Numbered from the stretch's first letter, positions 8,851 through 62,717 are shown. The stretch: 64,000 nt of DNA from an uncultured virus (IMG/VR IMGVR_UViG_3300042566_001492) (IMGVR_UViG_3300042566_001492), one strand, 5' to 3'. Translations and numbers: made by a program. The notes: generated by a model not told the origin, from the sequence alone.

Positions 8851-9042
8851 TTACAAATGTATGAAATTTTTCCATTCTTTCCAATTATCAAATTCTTTTA
8901 AATTCTCAATCTCTGATTCAAGTTCGATAAATAACTTTTCTCTCATACTCTTATATTGATGTAACATAAGACCACCATTAATTGAATGTAAGTCAATCAT
9001 CGCGTTGACTTTTTTAATTTCTTCTATTATATCTTGTATCAT
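8851..9042 (-). CDS. Hypothetical protein
   Basis: 63-aa ORF within an operon. Confidence 0.5.
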   Translation of the reverse strand: MIQDIIEEIKKVNAMIDLHSINGGLMLHQYKSMREKLFIELESEIENLKEFDNWKEWKNFIHL

Positions 9043-9257
9043 ATTATTTGATTTATTTTTTCGTCTCTTTTCTCACTTAACCAGTTGTAATATTTTTCCA
9101 ATTTAACTACTTCTCCAAATCCTCTAACACTTTTGGATAAATTTATAACTTTAATATCTAGCATTTTATTATGAATATCAAATGAATCACATATTATATC
9201 TTTATTATATCTAAGATGTTCATGTAGGAAGTCGGTCAACAATTCTAAAGTTATCAT
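9039..9257 (-). CDS. Hypothetical protein with C-terminal KRDEKINQII motif
   Basis: ORF coupled to purA; C-terminal motif. Confidence 0.6.
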   Translation of the reverse strand: MITLELLTDFLHEHLRYNKDIICDSFDIHNKMLDIKVINLSKSVRGFGEVVKLEKYYNWLSEKRDEKINQII

Positions 9258-10543
9258 TATTTCATTATTGTTTGTAATCTATCTGGCCCAACTGAAATTC
9301 TTGTAATTGGAATATTTACTTCTGTTAGAATAAAAGAAATATAATCTTTTGCTTCCTCAGGAAGTTCATCATAATTTTTACAATTAGTGATATCTACATC
9401 CCAACCCTTTAACTCTTTATAAATTGGTTCAATATCTTTATCAGACAAATCAAACGGTATGGTGTCTTTATAAACCTCTCCTCTATAATTATAACCAACA
9501 CAAACTTTGATAGTCTCAAAATGACTAAGAACATCTAATTTCATAATGTTTAATTCAGTCACTCCATTTATCATACAAGAGTATTTAAGAGCCGGTAAAT
9601 CTAACCAACCACATCTACGAGATCGACCGGTAGTTGCTCCAAATTCTGAACCAATTTGTCTCATCTTTTCACCTACTTCGTTGTCTAACTCTGTTGGGAA
9701 AGGACCGCTACCAACACGAGTTGTATAAGCCTTAAAGATACCAGTAACACTTCCAATTGAATGAGGTGAAACACCTAAACCAGAAATAACACCAGAAATT
9801 GTAGTGTTAGATGAAGTGACAAACGGATAAGTTCCATAATCAACATCTAAGAGAGAACCTTGAGCACCCTCAGCTAAAACGGTTTTTCTTTCTTTTAAAG
9901 ATTTATTAATAAAGTATTCAGAATCAATAATATCAATTACTTTTAAGTATTCAATCGATTCAAACCACATTAACTCTTCTTTTTCAATTTGAGAATATAA
10001 ATCTAACCATTCTAATGTGGTCTTATGTCTTTCCATAATCAGAAAGTGCTTCTCTTTTAATACGTTGTATTTTTCTCTTAAATCTACAAAAATATCACCC
10101 ATTCTGATACCATTTCTTCCAGTTTTATCCATATAAGTTGGGCCAATTCCTTTTAAGGTTGAACCAATTTTTTTATCACCTTTATCTAATTCGGATACTT
10201 TATCTAATATTCTGTGACTTGGAAGAATAAGGTGAGCTTTTTTAGAAATTTTTAATTTAGGAATAACATTTATACCATGACTTTCTAATAACTTTATTTC
10301 TTCAACTAAGGCAATCGGATCGATTACAACACCACTTCCTATAATATTAACACAATTATCTCTGAATATCCCAGAAGGAATTAGGTGTAAAACATGTTTT
10401 TTACCATCAAAGATGAGTGTGTGTCCTGCATTTGCGCCGCCTTGGAATCTAGCAATTATATCATAATTTGGTGTAATAAAGTCAACTAATTTTCCTTTAC
10501 CTTCGTCTCCCCATTGAAGACCCAATAGTACATCTACTTTCAT
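9257..10543 (-). CDS. purA: Adenylosuccinate synthetase
   Basis: [58 protein letters not shown]. Confidence 0.98.
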
Positions 10544-10947
10544 TTAATTAATTCATTTATTTTATAATCTCTACTCCACTGATTCATAAGATTTAACATT
10601 TTCTCAGAACCGTATGATTTTACATTTTCAACAAAAATTTCTTTATCTAAGTCAAATTCTCTGATTGTTATATTAGTGAAGTACTTTATGTCTCTGAAAT
10701 CCGACTTCAACTCATAATATTCATTTGATTCATACCAGTTTGTTGAATCATCACCATAACAGGATGTATAGTATTCTGTTTGATAACCTTGTGGTATATC
10801 AAATATCTTTTCACTTTCTGTAAAAAAGTTATCCCATTTCTCTGATGATTCCTCTGCTTTAGTTATATCAGTGAATAAGCCAATCATTGACCACCAACTA
10901 CTTTCTGGATCCTCAAAATGAGCTTCTACAATATAGACTTTATTCAT
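10540..10947 (-). CDS. Hypothetical protein with C-terminal [11 protein letters not shown] motif
   Basis: ORF; C-terminal motif. Confidence 0.6.
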
Positions 10948-11007
10948 TTATACGTTTATTAATACTTTATTTTTATGAAATCAATATAATAAAGTTGTAT
11001 TGTAATT

Positions 11008-11016
11008 TAATATATA
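11008..11016 (+). promoter_or_regulatory. TAATATATA motif (putative late promoter)
   Basis: 4 nt before the ATG at 11021. Confidence 0.6.
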
Positions 11017-11020
11017 AAGT

Positions 11021-12016
11021 ATGATATCTAAATACAATGAATTTCTATTAGAGAAAGAGTTTCAGTCATTAATCGATGAAATGTATAGAATAGTTGAGTC
11101 TGAAGGAAGATGGACTTCAGATAATACTTACGAGTGGGATATATCAAATGTGTATGATAATGAAGTTGAACAACCAGATTGGATTGATAGACTTATAGAT
11201 AAAGCCGAAGATTTTATTAAAAAAATTCCTAAAGAAAAAATAAAAGAATATTTTGTAAGATTAGTAAACGCCACTAAATCAATACCAGAAATTTTTAGAA
11301 AAAGAATTCTAGCGGGATATCTTTCTATATTTTTAGCTGTTGTTAGCTTTGGATATTTAGTAACACCTAGCTCTTCTGAGGAAACCCAAAAAGTAGAACA
11401 AATAGACTCAAAAATTAAAAAAGACATAGAAGAGATACACCAAAAGGTATTTACAAAAAAAGACAAAGCATCTTTTGAGGTAGCACAAGGTTTAGTAAAA
11501 ACAGCAGAAGCTGGATACTCGGATGATAGAGGTGACACTGGAAACTGGATAACAATTCCAGGACATGGGCAAAGATTTGTAGGAACAAATCATGGAATAT
11601 CAGCACCGATTCTACATGAATATTTAGGTAGATATCCTAAAAAAGAGGATATGATTAACCTTTCTTATGAAACAGCACTAAAGATTTATAAAAGTAAATA
11701 TTGGAATGAACAAAATCTATCAGAATTTAGCAATCAATCTGTTGCAAATATTATTTATGATGGTTGTGTCAATCAGGGTCAATCAGCAATGAGAGAAATT
11801 GTTAGAGATGCTTATAGAATTAATGGAATTGATATCGGAGATAACAGTCCTTTTGCAAAGTCATCTATATCAAAAATTAATAAAATAAATCAACAAAAAC
11901 TATTTGATACAGTTAAAGAACTAAGAGAAAGCAGATATAGAGAAGCAGCAACTTGGGATAGACACGGTGATGGATGGTTGAATAGACTTAATGGAATTGA
12001 ATTTAATCAAGCATGA
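11021..12016 (+). CDS. GH108-family lysozyme-like protein with N-terminal leader and an internal TM segment
   Basis: EAGYSDDRGDTGN...GTNHGIS, IYKSKYW, YDGCVNQG, GWLNRL; leader MISKYNEFLLE. Confidence 0.8.
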   Translation: MISKYNEFLLEKEFQSLIDEMYRIVESEGRWTSDNTYEWDISNVYDNEVEQPDWIDRLIDKAEDFIKKIPKEKIKEYFVRLVNATKSIPEIFRKRILAGYLSIFLAVVSFGYLVTPSSSEETQKVEQIDSKIKKDIEEIHQKVFTKKDKASFEVAQGLVKTAEAGYSDDRGDTGNWITIPGHGQRFVGTNHGISAPILHEYLGRYPKKEDMINLSYETALKIYKSKYWNEQNLSEFSNQSVANIIYDGCVNQGQSAMREIVRDAYRINGIDIGDNSPFAKSSISKINKINQQKLFDTVKELRESRYREAATWDRHGDGWLNRLNGIEFNQA

Positions 12017-61371: not shown

Positions 61372-61391
61372 AATTAATAAAATAATATAAT

Positions 61392-61889
61392 ATGGGATGT
61401 GATATACATTTTTTCGTAGAACATTGGACTTCATCAAATAATTACGGAGGACCTAAAGACCTAGAAGATGATAGAGACCAAAAAATTAATGAAGTATTAG
61501 ACGAAGTACCGGTAAGATTTAGATGGATATCTGCTGATAAATGGCAAATTGAAGACGGTGAATGGGAAATCGATTGGAATGATGAATATTACGGTGGTAG
61601 AAACTATGAATTATTTTCATTGCTCGCAGGTGTCAGAGGTGATTTAGAACCAATTAAAGATATAAGAGGTATTCCAGAGGATGCATCAACTGGATATTTA
61701 TATAAATGTAATAAGTGGAAAGGAGATGCACATTCACATTCATATTATACTTTAGATGAACTTCTTAATGTTGATTGGTCTAAATACCAATATATGTATA
61801 TTGATGATTTTATCAAATCTTTAGATAGAATGAAAGAAATAGATACTGATTATAAAAAGGTTAGATGTTGTTTCTTTTTTGATAACTAA
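61392..61889 (+). CDS. Conserved phage protein (MGCDIH...RNYELF..LAGVR...FFDN) with internal DRDQKINEVLD motif
   Basis: Recognisable phage family pattern. Confidence 0.7.
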   Translation: MGCDIHFFVEHWTSSNNYGGPKDLEDDRDQKINEVLDEVPVRFRWISADKWQIEDGEWEIDWNDEYYGGRNYELFSLLAGVRGDLEPIKDIRGIPEDASTGYLYKCNKWKGDAHSHSYYTLDELLNVDWSKYQYMYIDDFIKSLDRMKEIDTDYKKVRCCFFFDN

Positions 61890-62342
61890 TTACCATTGAC
61901 CAAGTGACATCGCTTCATCATAATCTCTTTCACATCTACTAGAACAAAAAGGATTGTTTCTATTGGTTTGTGTAAAAACTTGATTACATTTATGACAGTT
62001 TTTTTCACCTTCTCTAAAAGAATGGTCTGCATAAATTCTTGACAACTCATGCATAATATATTCAACCGTGTCTGAATCTGATGTCCACATTGGAAACCAT
62101 TCTTCATCAGCAGTTGGAGGTGATGAATAGTAATAATCTAATTCTTCTCTGAGTCTCTCTGGATCATAACTAGATGATGGTTCACTAACATTTAACCAAT
62201 AGTCATAAAAAGAAAATAATTCATCTACATTATTAATAGATTCTTTAGATTTAAGTTCTTCTAATGCTGATTCCCAAATACTTCCTGGTATAGACTTCCA
62301 GTTTCTGGACTCAAATAGGTTAAATGATTTTAGATATTTCAT
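61890..62342 (-). CDS. Leader-tagged protein with a C-terminal CxxC...CSxxC zinc finger
   Basis: Start moved to MKYLKSFNLFES at 62342, 4 nt after TAATATATA. Confidence 0.7.
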   Translation of the reverse strand: MKYLKSFNLFESRNWKSIPGSIWESALEELKSKESINNVDELFSFYDYWLNVSEPSSSYDPERLREELDYYYSSPPTADEEWFPMWTSDSDTVEYIMHELSRIYADHSFREGEKNCHKCNQVFTQTNRNNPFCSSRCERDYDEAMSLGQW

Positions 62343-62346
62343 TTTG

Positions 62347-62373
62347 TATATATTAAAAATAAGATTATATTTG
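62347..62373. promoter_or_regulatory. Back-to-back promoters: TAATATATA (minus) and TATATTTG (plus)
   Basis: 62347-62355 on minus; 62366-62373 on plus. Confidence 0.6.
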
Positions 62374-62378
62374 TAGGT

Positions 62379-62717
62379 ATGCAAATCATATTAGGAGATA
62401 TTACAATTAAAATGACATCAAATGGACGTGATGAAGATTTTAATACACTTAATTGTATATTCTCAAAAGGTTTCAAAAAAGGTAATGGTTCTAGAGAAGT
62501 AAAAAATTTTTACTTTTATCACCAAAGAGGAAAGGGATTAATATTTAAGGGCGGAATGGATTGGTCACCACAAGAAATGAAAGAATATATGGAATTCCTT
62601 AAATTAGAATACCAAGAGTTACAAAAGATAAACGATGATATTTCAACAGTAGATTTCTTATCTTATCTAATCTCTAAAAGAAGAACAGAAATTATTAATG
62701 ATATAACTAAATTATGA
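62379..62717 (+). CDS. Hypothetical protein ending KRRTEIINDITKL
   Basis: ORF 5 nt after TATATTTG. Confidence 0.6.
   Translation: MQIILGDITIKMTSNGRDEDFNTLNCIFSKGFKKGNGSREVKNFYFYHQRGKGLIFKGGMDWSPQEMKEYMEFLKLEYQELQKINDDISTVDFLSYLISKRRTEIINDITKL

Follow-up and report, generated by a model that had tools for sequence, protein, structure and literature searches.

A selected C-terminal peptide shared by otherwise unrelated small proteins of a group of huge AT-rich phages

Introduction

Why should so many small proteins of a single virus, with bodies that bear no detectable relation to one another, end in the same short peptide? This question is raised by a 64,000-nucleotide stretch of DNA from an uncultured virus (IMG/VR IMGVR_UViG_3300042566_001492), which is referred to here, at its full length, as the window and which comes from a large AT-rich phage (G+C content of the window, 30%). 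The original prediction, made from the sequence alone, had listed about 15 window proteins as carriers of a common C-terminal tag and had suggested that one partner, possibly the ClpP encoded by the phage, reads it. We analyzed the tail in the window and in related phage genomes (designated G001, G002, and so on) and weighed the explanations for it.

Results

A shared tail terminates 14 proteins of the window

We worked with 102 open reading frames (ORFs) of the window, selected greedily, longest first, with a minimum length of 40 amino acids (aa) and an overlap of at most 60 nt. Fourteen of them terminate in R-[DENKQ]-x-[KNQ]-[LIV]-x-x-[LIVM], with no more than four residues before the stop, and in 10 of the 14 the arginine lies exactly 10 residues from the C-terminal end. 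Because this expression was tuned on the window itself and the ORF sets include some spurious ORFs, all fractions given here are approximate. When whole proteins were shuffled (n = 1000), the mean number of tagged endings was 0.06 and the maximum 2; when only the last 25 aa were shuffled (n = 1000), the mean was 0.10 and the maximum 3. Thus, the predicted enrichment over shuffled C termini is borne out. The motif was found in none of the 126 non-selected ORFs of the window. Three related tag-free huge phages (G006, G018, and G023) served as natural controls, and even with a broader expression only 4 of their 1608 ORFs were tagged (binomial p = 1.7e-20 for the window count). Together, these data confirm that the shared C-terminal tail is real.

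Of the sites listed originally, 14 of 15 hold. The ORF at 62379, rated weak from the start, whose tail reads ...KRRTEIINDITKL, fails the core of the motif, and the one at 52391 (RKRKIKNIFNEK) is marginal. The positions assigned to the sites match gene boundaries (the gene start for plus-strand genes) and not the tags, and 59605 is an internal ATG of ORF 59533-59922.

In the window, the tail is confined to proteins that lack annotation: it occurs on none of the 37 Pfam-annotated ORFs of the window and on 14 of the 65 unannotated ones (Fisher p = 0.0017), which agrees with the earlier remark that host-like enzymes are free of it. Pfam returned no match for any of the 14 window carriers, and PHROG a single weak match that stops short of the tail. 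Another 139 + 91 carriers from relatives gave only DUF1660, PP-binding, and sub-threshold DUF6501/DUF6650 matches, all of them in the body. As had been supposed, then, no Pfam or PHROG family spans the tail. We also found no description of such a tail in the literature, where sequence motifs cannot be searched for as such, so that its absence from print is unproven.

The constant part of the tail is R1-[DE]2-x-K4-[LI]5-x-x-[LI]8, preceded by a hydrophobic residue. Two kinds of ending follow: type A tails finish with ...[LI]-G-[IV] at the C terminus, and type B tails with ...[LI]-[LF]-x(1-3), for example KILDSN or LLNE; the latter prevail in G012 and G017. Among 153 tails from the window and its relatives (duplicate contig G003 left out), the same set as used for the codon counts below, the core is separated from the stop by exactly two residues in 105 and by 0, 1, or 3-5 residues in 48. 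Position 9 is glycine in 94 of the 153 (in 7 of the 14 in the window) and otherwise leucine or another residue. On a helical wheel, position 0, R1, K4, L5, and L8 would fall on the same face. The tail is best explained as a short stretch of amphipathic α-helix, (hydrophobic)-R-[DE/N]-x-[K/R]-[LI]-x-x-[LI]-[G/L]-[I/..], located at the C terminus or a few residues from it. Since the conserved residues would share one face, we read this helix as a docking or addressing motif.

Selection acts on the peptide

Codon usage discriminates between a conserved peptide and a conserved DNA element. Arg1 is encoded by AGA (80%), CGT (7%), CGA (7%), and AGG (5%), compared to a background of 67, 11, 8, and 10%, and the lysine, the aspartate, and the two Leu/Ile positions are mostly at background usage, with CTA at L5 as the largest departure (0.35 versus 0.14). 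In 63 homologous tagged pairs from different genomes (the genome pairs are not independent), identical residues were specified by different codons at 46% of tail and 50% of body positions, which confirms the synonymous variation noticed earlier. In the same pairs, tails were 56% identical and bodies 40%. Because the core codons are near background, identical residues are recoded, and tail identity exceeds body identity, it is the peptide that is kept. Selection therefore acts on the peptide.

Position 10 alone is constrained at the codon level (codon-difference rate, 0.24). The terminal isoleucine is ATA in 83% of cases (background, 41%), the terminal valine is GTA in six of six, and the glycine is GGA in 60% (background, 33%). 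An ATGA overlap with the next gene was found for 45% of type A and 25% of type B tails, compared to 7% of untagged ORFs of at most 250 aa, and 42-44% of tagged genes have no close downstream gene. Since ATA or GTA followed by TGA creates the ATG of the next gene, the G-I/V ending is in part a by-product of coupling. The shaping of the last two codons by such overlaps had no place in the original prediction.

The tail is appended to unrelated bodies

Of 602 ORFs in the window and in eleven stretches of relatives (6-20 kb each), 192 were tagged (G003/G005 duplicates counted). After removal of the tails, the 192 bodies fell into 123 BLAST clusters, 81 of them singletons, in agreement with the claim of a portable peptide on unrelated soluble and membrane proteins. 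Among the carriers are DUF1660 zinc ribbons, an acyl-carrier-protein-like (ACP-like) protein that occurs in two phages, and proteins that contain hydrophobic segments. Tagged genes are grouped in same-strand arrays of ORFs of about 70-130 aa. In G017, five tandem paralogues of 127-213 aa (L494:3423-5842) all end in ...NPxAE(I/L)xRLxRExKLNxLL(N/D)E; this recent expansion shows that tail capture is not the only way in which arrays grow and that duplication contributes too.

Gain and loss of the tail could be followed by the comparison of homologues, as had been proposed. All 20 IMG/VR homologues of the 172-aa protein (59919-60437) stop at ...ILKxK(W/Y)(L/K), and the window copy continues for 17 residues that hold the tail; no tagged ORF was present in the 20 IMG/VR loci of these homologues. 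In the AlphaFold2 model of this protein, built on its own alignment (A2), the tail is predicted to form a separate helix at residues 160-169 after a linker, with a predicted local distance difference test score (pLDDT) of 59-73. The family of the 106-aa protein (42080-42400) comprises 6922 clusters and is only partly tagged, the tail being found on 16 of the best 150 representatives. Where the conserved xGH motif of this family was located, the eight tagged members end 23-27 aa past it and untagged members mostly 9-20 aa past it. Together, these results demonstrate that the tail is portable: it has been added to a wide range of unrelated proteins, most of them small ORFans encoded in tightly packed arrays on one strand.

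In one carrier family the helix is predicted to belong to an SH3-like fold

The original prediction did not include one carrier family that emerged here. An iterative hidden Markov model (HMM) search from ORF 59330-59566 collected 80 small proteins, of which 72 are tagged, with the consensus vICI..LTxGKxY....DDxG....Y....FxTLxEWRExKLxELGI (alignment A1); R70 is invariant and the barrel residue Tyr34 nearly so. AlphaFold2 modeled this ORF as seven strands and a C-terminal helix at residues 66-77, with a mean pLDDT of 87.5 and block means of 94 (residues 61-70) and 86 (residues 71-78). The best PDB fold matches of the model are SH3 domains, although weak ones (E 0.08-0.6), and a BFVD search gave weak matches only (E >=4e-3), to uncharacterised small phage proteins. 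A protein homology search with A1 followed by cluster look-up found 163 relatives, all "hypothetical protein", and the ESM Atlas returned only unnamed viral clusters for ORF 59330.

With the tails cut off, a barrel-only HMM still detected 57 proteins. Of these, 50 are tagged and most of the remaining seven end in degenerate tails; tag-free genomes contributed none. The barrel was thereby detected in 50 of 341 tagged ORFs (about 15%) and, in the window, in ORF 59330-59566 but in none of the other 13 carriers. The models and profiles thus indicate that about 15% of carriers share one fold whose final element is the helix, and that this is not detectably so in the remaining 85%. A helix integral to one shared fold, which was to have spoken against a portable tag, therefore applies to the SH3-like subset only.

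The tail is restricted to one group of huge phages

The DNA pattern R-[DN]-x-K-h-x-x-h-G-[IVM]-stop has at least 140 matches in at least 131 IMG/VR loci. Among the matches listed, 99 of 140 close a frame of at least 58 codons, with the consensus RDxKL(K/N)ELGI, and contigs 150-476 kb long account for many of them. The same pattern gave at least 120 matches in prokaryotes, searched as one genome per species for 185,579 species; 10 of the 120 listed close a long frame and none is tail-like. A narrower canonical pattern has no match in 596 Gb of cellular genomes, compared to 28 of the viral matches listed. We therefore rejected mimicry of a host C terminus: among the cellular matches listed none resembles the tag.

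Related genomes are tagged throughout, as predicted, with 5-26% of ORFs carrying the tail across seven related sets, and a frame-free core pattern exceeds its built-in reversed control in each of 11 genomes (Table 1). Megablast and tblastn searches with window genes against a named phage collection revealed no close relative; in that collection, tagged families are common only to LR745206.1 (634,780 bp) and LR756502.1 (642,428 bp). The available part of the report by Al-Shayeb et al. places their largest huge-phage genomes in a "Mahaphage" clade with predicted Bacteroidetes hosts (PMC7162821). Our data show that the tag is restricted to one group of huge AT-rich phages; their hosts are probably Bacteroidota.

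Table 1. Tagged ORFs and motif excess in individual genomes
Genome	Size and remarks	Tagged ORFs	Share	Core pattern matches	Reversed control matches
G001	17.6 kb, close to window	9/37	24.3%		
G002	476 kb	83/674	12.3%	52	4
G004	344 kb	79/521	15.2%	41	2
G005	172 kb	89/344	25.9%	62	5
G009				25	5
G012	263 kb	17/323	5.3%	14	3
G013				20	2
G017				8	0
G024	281 kb	46/426	10.8%	32	3
G025				30	5
G026				22	7
LR745206.1				73	14
G006	control	1/359	0.3%		
G018	control	1/563	0.2%		
G023	control	2/686	0.3%		

Two details of these genomes deserve mention. IMG/VR labels G002, G012, G013, G024, and G026 (150-476 kb) "provirus"; given the cellular searches described above, this label may stem from their many host-like genes and not from integration. 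In G009, a perfect tail, RDQKLKKLGI-stop (L074, L123; 16316-16948), has in-frame stops 3 and 20 codons upstream, which may mean either that this phage decodes a stop codon as an amino acid or that the gene is broken.

A multi-copy zinc-finger family accompanies the tail

Taking G002 as the reference, we found 74 families that are present in G004 and G024 and absent from G006, G018, and G023. Only one family of unknown function among them also occurs in the partial sets G005 and G012 and in the window: a multi-copy family represented in the window by a protein of 513 aa (alignment A3). Its conserved core spans about residues 175-398 (GTLGxSCM, GRALLW, DRIYT, and YPYMDT) and is followed by C-terminal DnaJ-type CxxCxGxG repeats. 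A PDB sequence search gave only a weak DnaJ zinc-finger match (E = 0.013), and the ESM Atlas, queried with the core, only unnamed viral clusters. A PcfJ match from the ESM Atlas searches with ORF 59330 and with this core was a weak lead (score 0.82) and was not relied on.

All 11 genomes with motif excess encode the 513-aa family, and no excess is seen in the 12 genomes that lack it (Fisher p = 2e-5, phylogeny ignored). In G013 and G017 the family was seen before the tails were found there; in the first 20 kb of G017, 9 of 37 ORFs proved to be tagged. Because the association may lie within a single clade, it makes the family a lead and not a proof. Complex prediction for the 513-aa candidate (A3) with the tagged 172-aa protein (A2) gave scores of 0.00 and 0.00 (mark, 0.32) and speaks neither for nor against binding. 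Thus, the best co-occurring candidate for a reader, as yet unproven, is a phage-encoded multi-copy family with a DnaJ-type zinc-finger C terminus.

The phage-encoded Clp machinery does not co-occur with the tail

ClpP, the partner suggested originally, did not stand up to the comparison of genomes. True ClpP (E ~1e-54 or better) is encoded in the window, G002, G004, G005, G026, and LR745206.1. It is also found in seven other genomes (G014, G016, G017, G018, G021, G022, and G023), all but G017 without motif excess, and it is missing from the tag-bearing G009, G024, and G025, which are 91-95% complete. A 704-710-aa ClpC-like double AAA+ ATPase without Clp_N occurs in the tag-bearing G002, G004, G009, and LR745206.1, with the Pfam domains AAA, lid, UVR, AAA_2, and D2-small in the first three; the gene occurs equally in 12 genomes without LGI-type tags. 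Both docking into the ClpP pocket and a ClpC-like receptor were thereby weakened as explanations. In the flanks of 80 ClpC-like loci, 13 of 1927 ORFs were tagged, but as this gene lies in a tag-poor region, the count is uninformative.

Several observations concern the same loci. Relatives of the ClpC-like ATPase are encoded in 567 IMG/VR stretches, and a VGF stretch is present in the G002 copy. Immediately upstream of the ClpC-like gene lies a small conserved gene with a tail-like motif followed by 10-17 extra residues. In the window, a very acidic 175-aa protein without family (22729-23256) starts on the stop codon of ClpP; it is strongly conserved between G002 and G004 (E = 9e-82) and was discarded as a reader because, of 25 genomes, none but G002, G004, and G024 proved to encode it. 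The tagged protein adjacent to ClpP in the window showed no homology to the ClpP-adjacent 310/318-aa proteins of G005 and G002.

Positions of the tails and neighboring genes

The coordinates of all tails, of internal copies of the motif, and of the candidate partners are collected in Table 2. ORF 14679-15302 has tagged homologues in G003, G004, and G005 and a homologue in LR745206.1, and a related-locus search with ORFs 42080 and 10540 found no relatives. At 60989-61056, a tail (...LERNNKLNELGV) is directly followed by a gene that begins MIELERDIKLDII and contains a second tail-like motif; the internal copy in this gene, ORF 61018-61371, may be what is left of a small tagged gene that became fused with the adjacent one.

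Table 2. Coordinates of the tails, internal motif copies, and candidate partners (window positions unless a locus is given)
Feature	Position	Strand	ORF and remarks
Tail RDEKINQII	9042..9068	-	ORF 9039-9257 (72 aa); next gene begins via ATGA overlap
Tail (10 residues)	10543..10572	-	ORF 10540-10947 (135 aa); tagged homologues in G003/G005
Tail RNNNLDKLGIN	15267..15299	+	ORF 14679-15302 (207 aa, predicted membrane protein)
Tail REIKLEDLLN	21223..21252	-	ORF 21220-21939 (239 aa), divergent neighbor of ClpP
Tail RNQKLGNLLK	42368..42397	+	ORF 42080-42400 (106 aa)
Tail RNKKIKQIVK	43152..43181	-	ORF 43149-43496 (115 aa, hydrophobic segment)
Tail RNKKIKNLGI	43964..43993	-	ORF 43961-44392 (143 aa, hydrophobic segment)
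Tail RDNKLNNLGI	51730..51759	+	ORF 51259-51762 (167 aa); TAA stop, no overlapping next gene
Marginal tail RKRKIKNIFNEK	52487..52522	+	ORF 52391-52525 (44 aa); weakest member
Tail REMQLNKVI	59537..59563	+	ORF 59330-59566 (78 aa), SH3-like family
Tail REYKLNEILR	59890..59919	+	ORF 59533/59605-59922
Tail RDNKLKKLGV	60405..60434	+	ORF 59919-60437 (172 aa); last 17 aa are an add-on
Tail RQNKLKLIGI	60705..60734	+	ORF 60441-60737 (98 aa); tagged homologue in G002
Tail RNNKLNELGV	60989..61018	+	ORF 60734-61021 (95 aa); tagged homologue in G001
Internal copy RNEKLSDI	17335..17358	+	ORF 17122-17844; not terminal
Internal copy RDIKLDII	61033..61056	+	Residues 6-13 of ORF 61018-61371, right after the tail of the preceding gene
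Internal copy RDQKINEV	61473..61496	+	ORF 61392-61889
Candidate reader (513 aa)	18796..20337	+	Member of multi-copy family; Pfam BSD2_CRD only; alignment A3
Phage ClpP (244 aa)	21995..22729	+	Pfam E = 3e-52
ClpC-like ATPase, G002	L284:1644-3776		Pfam
ClpC-like ATPase, G004	L285:1803-3923		Pfam
ClpC-like ATPase, G009	L286:3647-5761		Pfam

The remainder of the window is rich in host-like genes recognized by Pfam. They include deformylase, dNK, purA, purB, and ClpP, together with a two-component pair and a long block of glycosyltransferases and methyltransferases. The two-component pair (5185-7747) consists of a 712-aa GAF-PAS-PAS protein of the histidine-kinase type (HATPase_c) and, following it, a 143-aa response-regulator receiver. 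Peptide deformylase lies at 258-821, a class II tRNA-synthetase-like protein (278 aa) at 970-1806, adenylosuccinate synthetase at 9257-10543, and adenylosuccinate lyase at 38651-39982. Very large fused glycosyltransferase/methyltransferase proteins (710, 383, 655, 942, and 781 aa) run from 23262 to 35705, and a second sugar-modification cluster (hexapeptide transferase, FkbM methyltransferase, and a DegT fragment) occupies 54284-57774.

Discussion

We consider the tail to be a lineage-specific, portable helical label that is selected as a peptide and serves most likely as a docking or addressing motif for one reader, a reading to which we give about an even chance. The helix, appended to many unrelated small proteins and kept by selection on its peptide, would plug its basic-hydrophobic face into one common reader, and such docking would connect some 45-90 distinct proteins of each genome with one machine or location. 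A more ambitious version would have these huge phages, related to the largest phage genomes known, run a proteome-addressing system of their own, in which a ten-residue helical label is read by a phage-encoded multi-copy receptor family (core plus DnaJ-type zinc fingers). In each genome, the receptors would collect or direct about 45-90 small proteins that evolve fast, with the particle, a compartment, or a takeover hub as examples of a destination, and new genes would join by tail capture; this we regard as a long shot.

Several points weigh against a docking label with one reader. That the tail docks to one partner is inferred, and so is the choice of the candidate partner. The 513-aa family is also present in G019 (20% complete) and G020 (92% complete), which show no motif excess. 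Moreover, the tag-bearing genomes may form one clade, and the 74 G002 families share a similar pattern of occurrence. In the SH3-like subset (50 of 341), the conserved residues may serve the fold of the protein itself. ATA/GTA+TGA overlaps and the GGA bias account in part for the final two positions (G-I/V). Lastly, nearly all carriers are of unknown function and give no hint of what the addressed proteins do.

Other explanations were weighed against the same data. The terminal helix of the SH3-like family could have been copied onto neighbors by deletion or recombination within the arrays and persist as a harmless or stabilizing cap with no common reader. We hold this to be unlikely. In its favor, 50 of the 57 proteins found by the barrel alone are tagged, with mostly degenerate tails in the other seven and no member in tag-free genomes, the helix is modeled with high block-mean pLDDT (94 and 86) on the seven-strand barrel, and R70 is invariant in A1, with Tyr34 nearly so. 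In addition, the carriers lie in dense arrays in which 25-45% overlap the next gene, which would make tail capture by deletion easy. However, 291 of 341 carriers were not detected as members of this family, and the residues R, K, L, and L persist on bodies of very different kinds, among them the 172-aa and 106-aa families, ACP-like proteins, and membrane proteins. A neutral passenger would be expected to decay, yet in homologous pairs the tail is better conserved (56% identity) than the body (40%). The SH3-like barrels, which are peptide-binding folds and strictly co-occur with the tag, also enter a different explanation, in which the tails bind each other, or the barrels in trans, and build mixed assemblies. 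The helix indeed bears both charges (R1 and K4 versus D/E2 and E7) and a leucine stripe, but 2.5 turns would be short for a stand-alone interface, and we hold such self-association to be quite improbable.

A degron or adaptor tail for Clp proteolysis, which would deliver the carrier, or a host protein bound by it, to the phage ClpP/ClpC-like proteins or to the host Clp and so time-limit early proteins or destroy host targets, appears improbable on the genome comparison. It draws on the true ClpP next to a tagged gene in the window, on the ClpC-like ATPase of G002, G004, G009, and LR745206.1 (by Pfam for the first three) with the VGF stretch in the G002 copy, on the tail-like motif of the small gene just upstream, and on the likeness of the [LI]-G-[IV] ending to IGF/LGF ClpP-docking loops. 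Against this, six genomes without motif excess (G014, G016, G018, G021, G022, and G023) encode true ClpP, G009, G024, and G025 bear tags without it (phage-encoded components only compared), and the ClpC-like gene is found in 12 genomes that lack the LGI-type tag. Nor is the hydrophobic-Gly-hydrophobic tripeptide of [LIV]-G-[FL] docking loops present in every carrier, as 59 of 153 tails have no glycine, and 48 of 153 are off the modal distance from the end. Finally, the tail could merely look like a peptide and act at the nucleotide level as a gene-end element (a recombination site, a terminator or promoter, or a means of translational coupling), which could account for the ATA, GTA, and GGA bias of the last codons and for the excess of ATGA overlaps. 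This explanation is largely refuted and very improbable: the core stands at background codons with arginine encoded by AGA, CGT, CGA, and AGG, synonymous differences are as common in tails as in bodies, the variable tail positions are polar and not random, a close downstream gene is lacking for 42-44% of tagged genes, and no copy of the motif occurs in non-coding frames of the window.

If one helix addresses a tenth to a quarter of the proteome in some of the largest known phages, it provides a handle on hundreds of ORFans. The tagged ORFans would then share a destination or a partner that a single pull-down could find, tail capture would be a simple rule for recruiting new genes into the phage program, and protein targeting in Bacteroidota-type hosts would gain a compact natural tag. 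The negative ClpP result means that the obvious protease reading should not be assumed.

A docking label of this kind can be compared with known systems. C-terminal degrons and SspB-type adaptor tails read by ClpX or ClpA (see also PMC3983244) are likewise short terminal peptides on unrelated proteins read by one machine, and the present phage group encodes ClpP and a ClpC-like ATPase. In contrast, the tag does not co-occur with phage ClpP or the ClpC-like gene, and its motif is a helix core that tolerates extra terminal residues. Encapsulin cargo-loading peptides, in the available parts of two reports (PMC8229669 and PMC11866011), are similar in being short C-terminal peptides that are portable between unrelated proteins and have a reader from the same element, a shell with an HK97 fold related to phage capsids. 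The encapsulin shell gene (Linocin_M18, PF04454) was found in none of five tag-bearing genomes by a search that detected it in three reference genomes in a control. The present tag also differs in sequence, in being helical, in having about 45-90 carriers per genome compared to the few cargo proteins mentioned there, and in that some carriers are membrane proteins.

Two further systems are close in form. The LxxLL motifs of nuclear-receptor boxes resemble the type B K-[LI]-x-x-[LI]-L, as both are short amphipathic helices of the groove-plugging kind with a basic residue before the leucine pair; being eukaryotic and without homology, they give only a picture of how such a helix works. Among phages, gp43, gp33, and gp55 of T4 and RB69 bear C-terminal tails that bind the sliding clamp. 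Here, too, phage proteins of different function carry a short C-terminal docking peptide for one hub, but with another sequence and on a handful of replication and transcription proteins, whereas the tail described here is carried by tens of ORFans.

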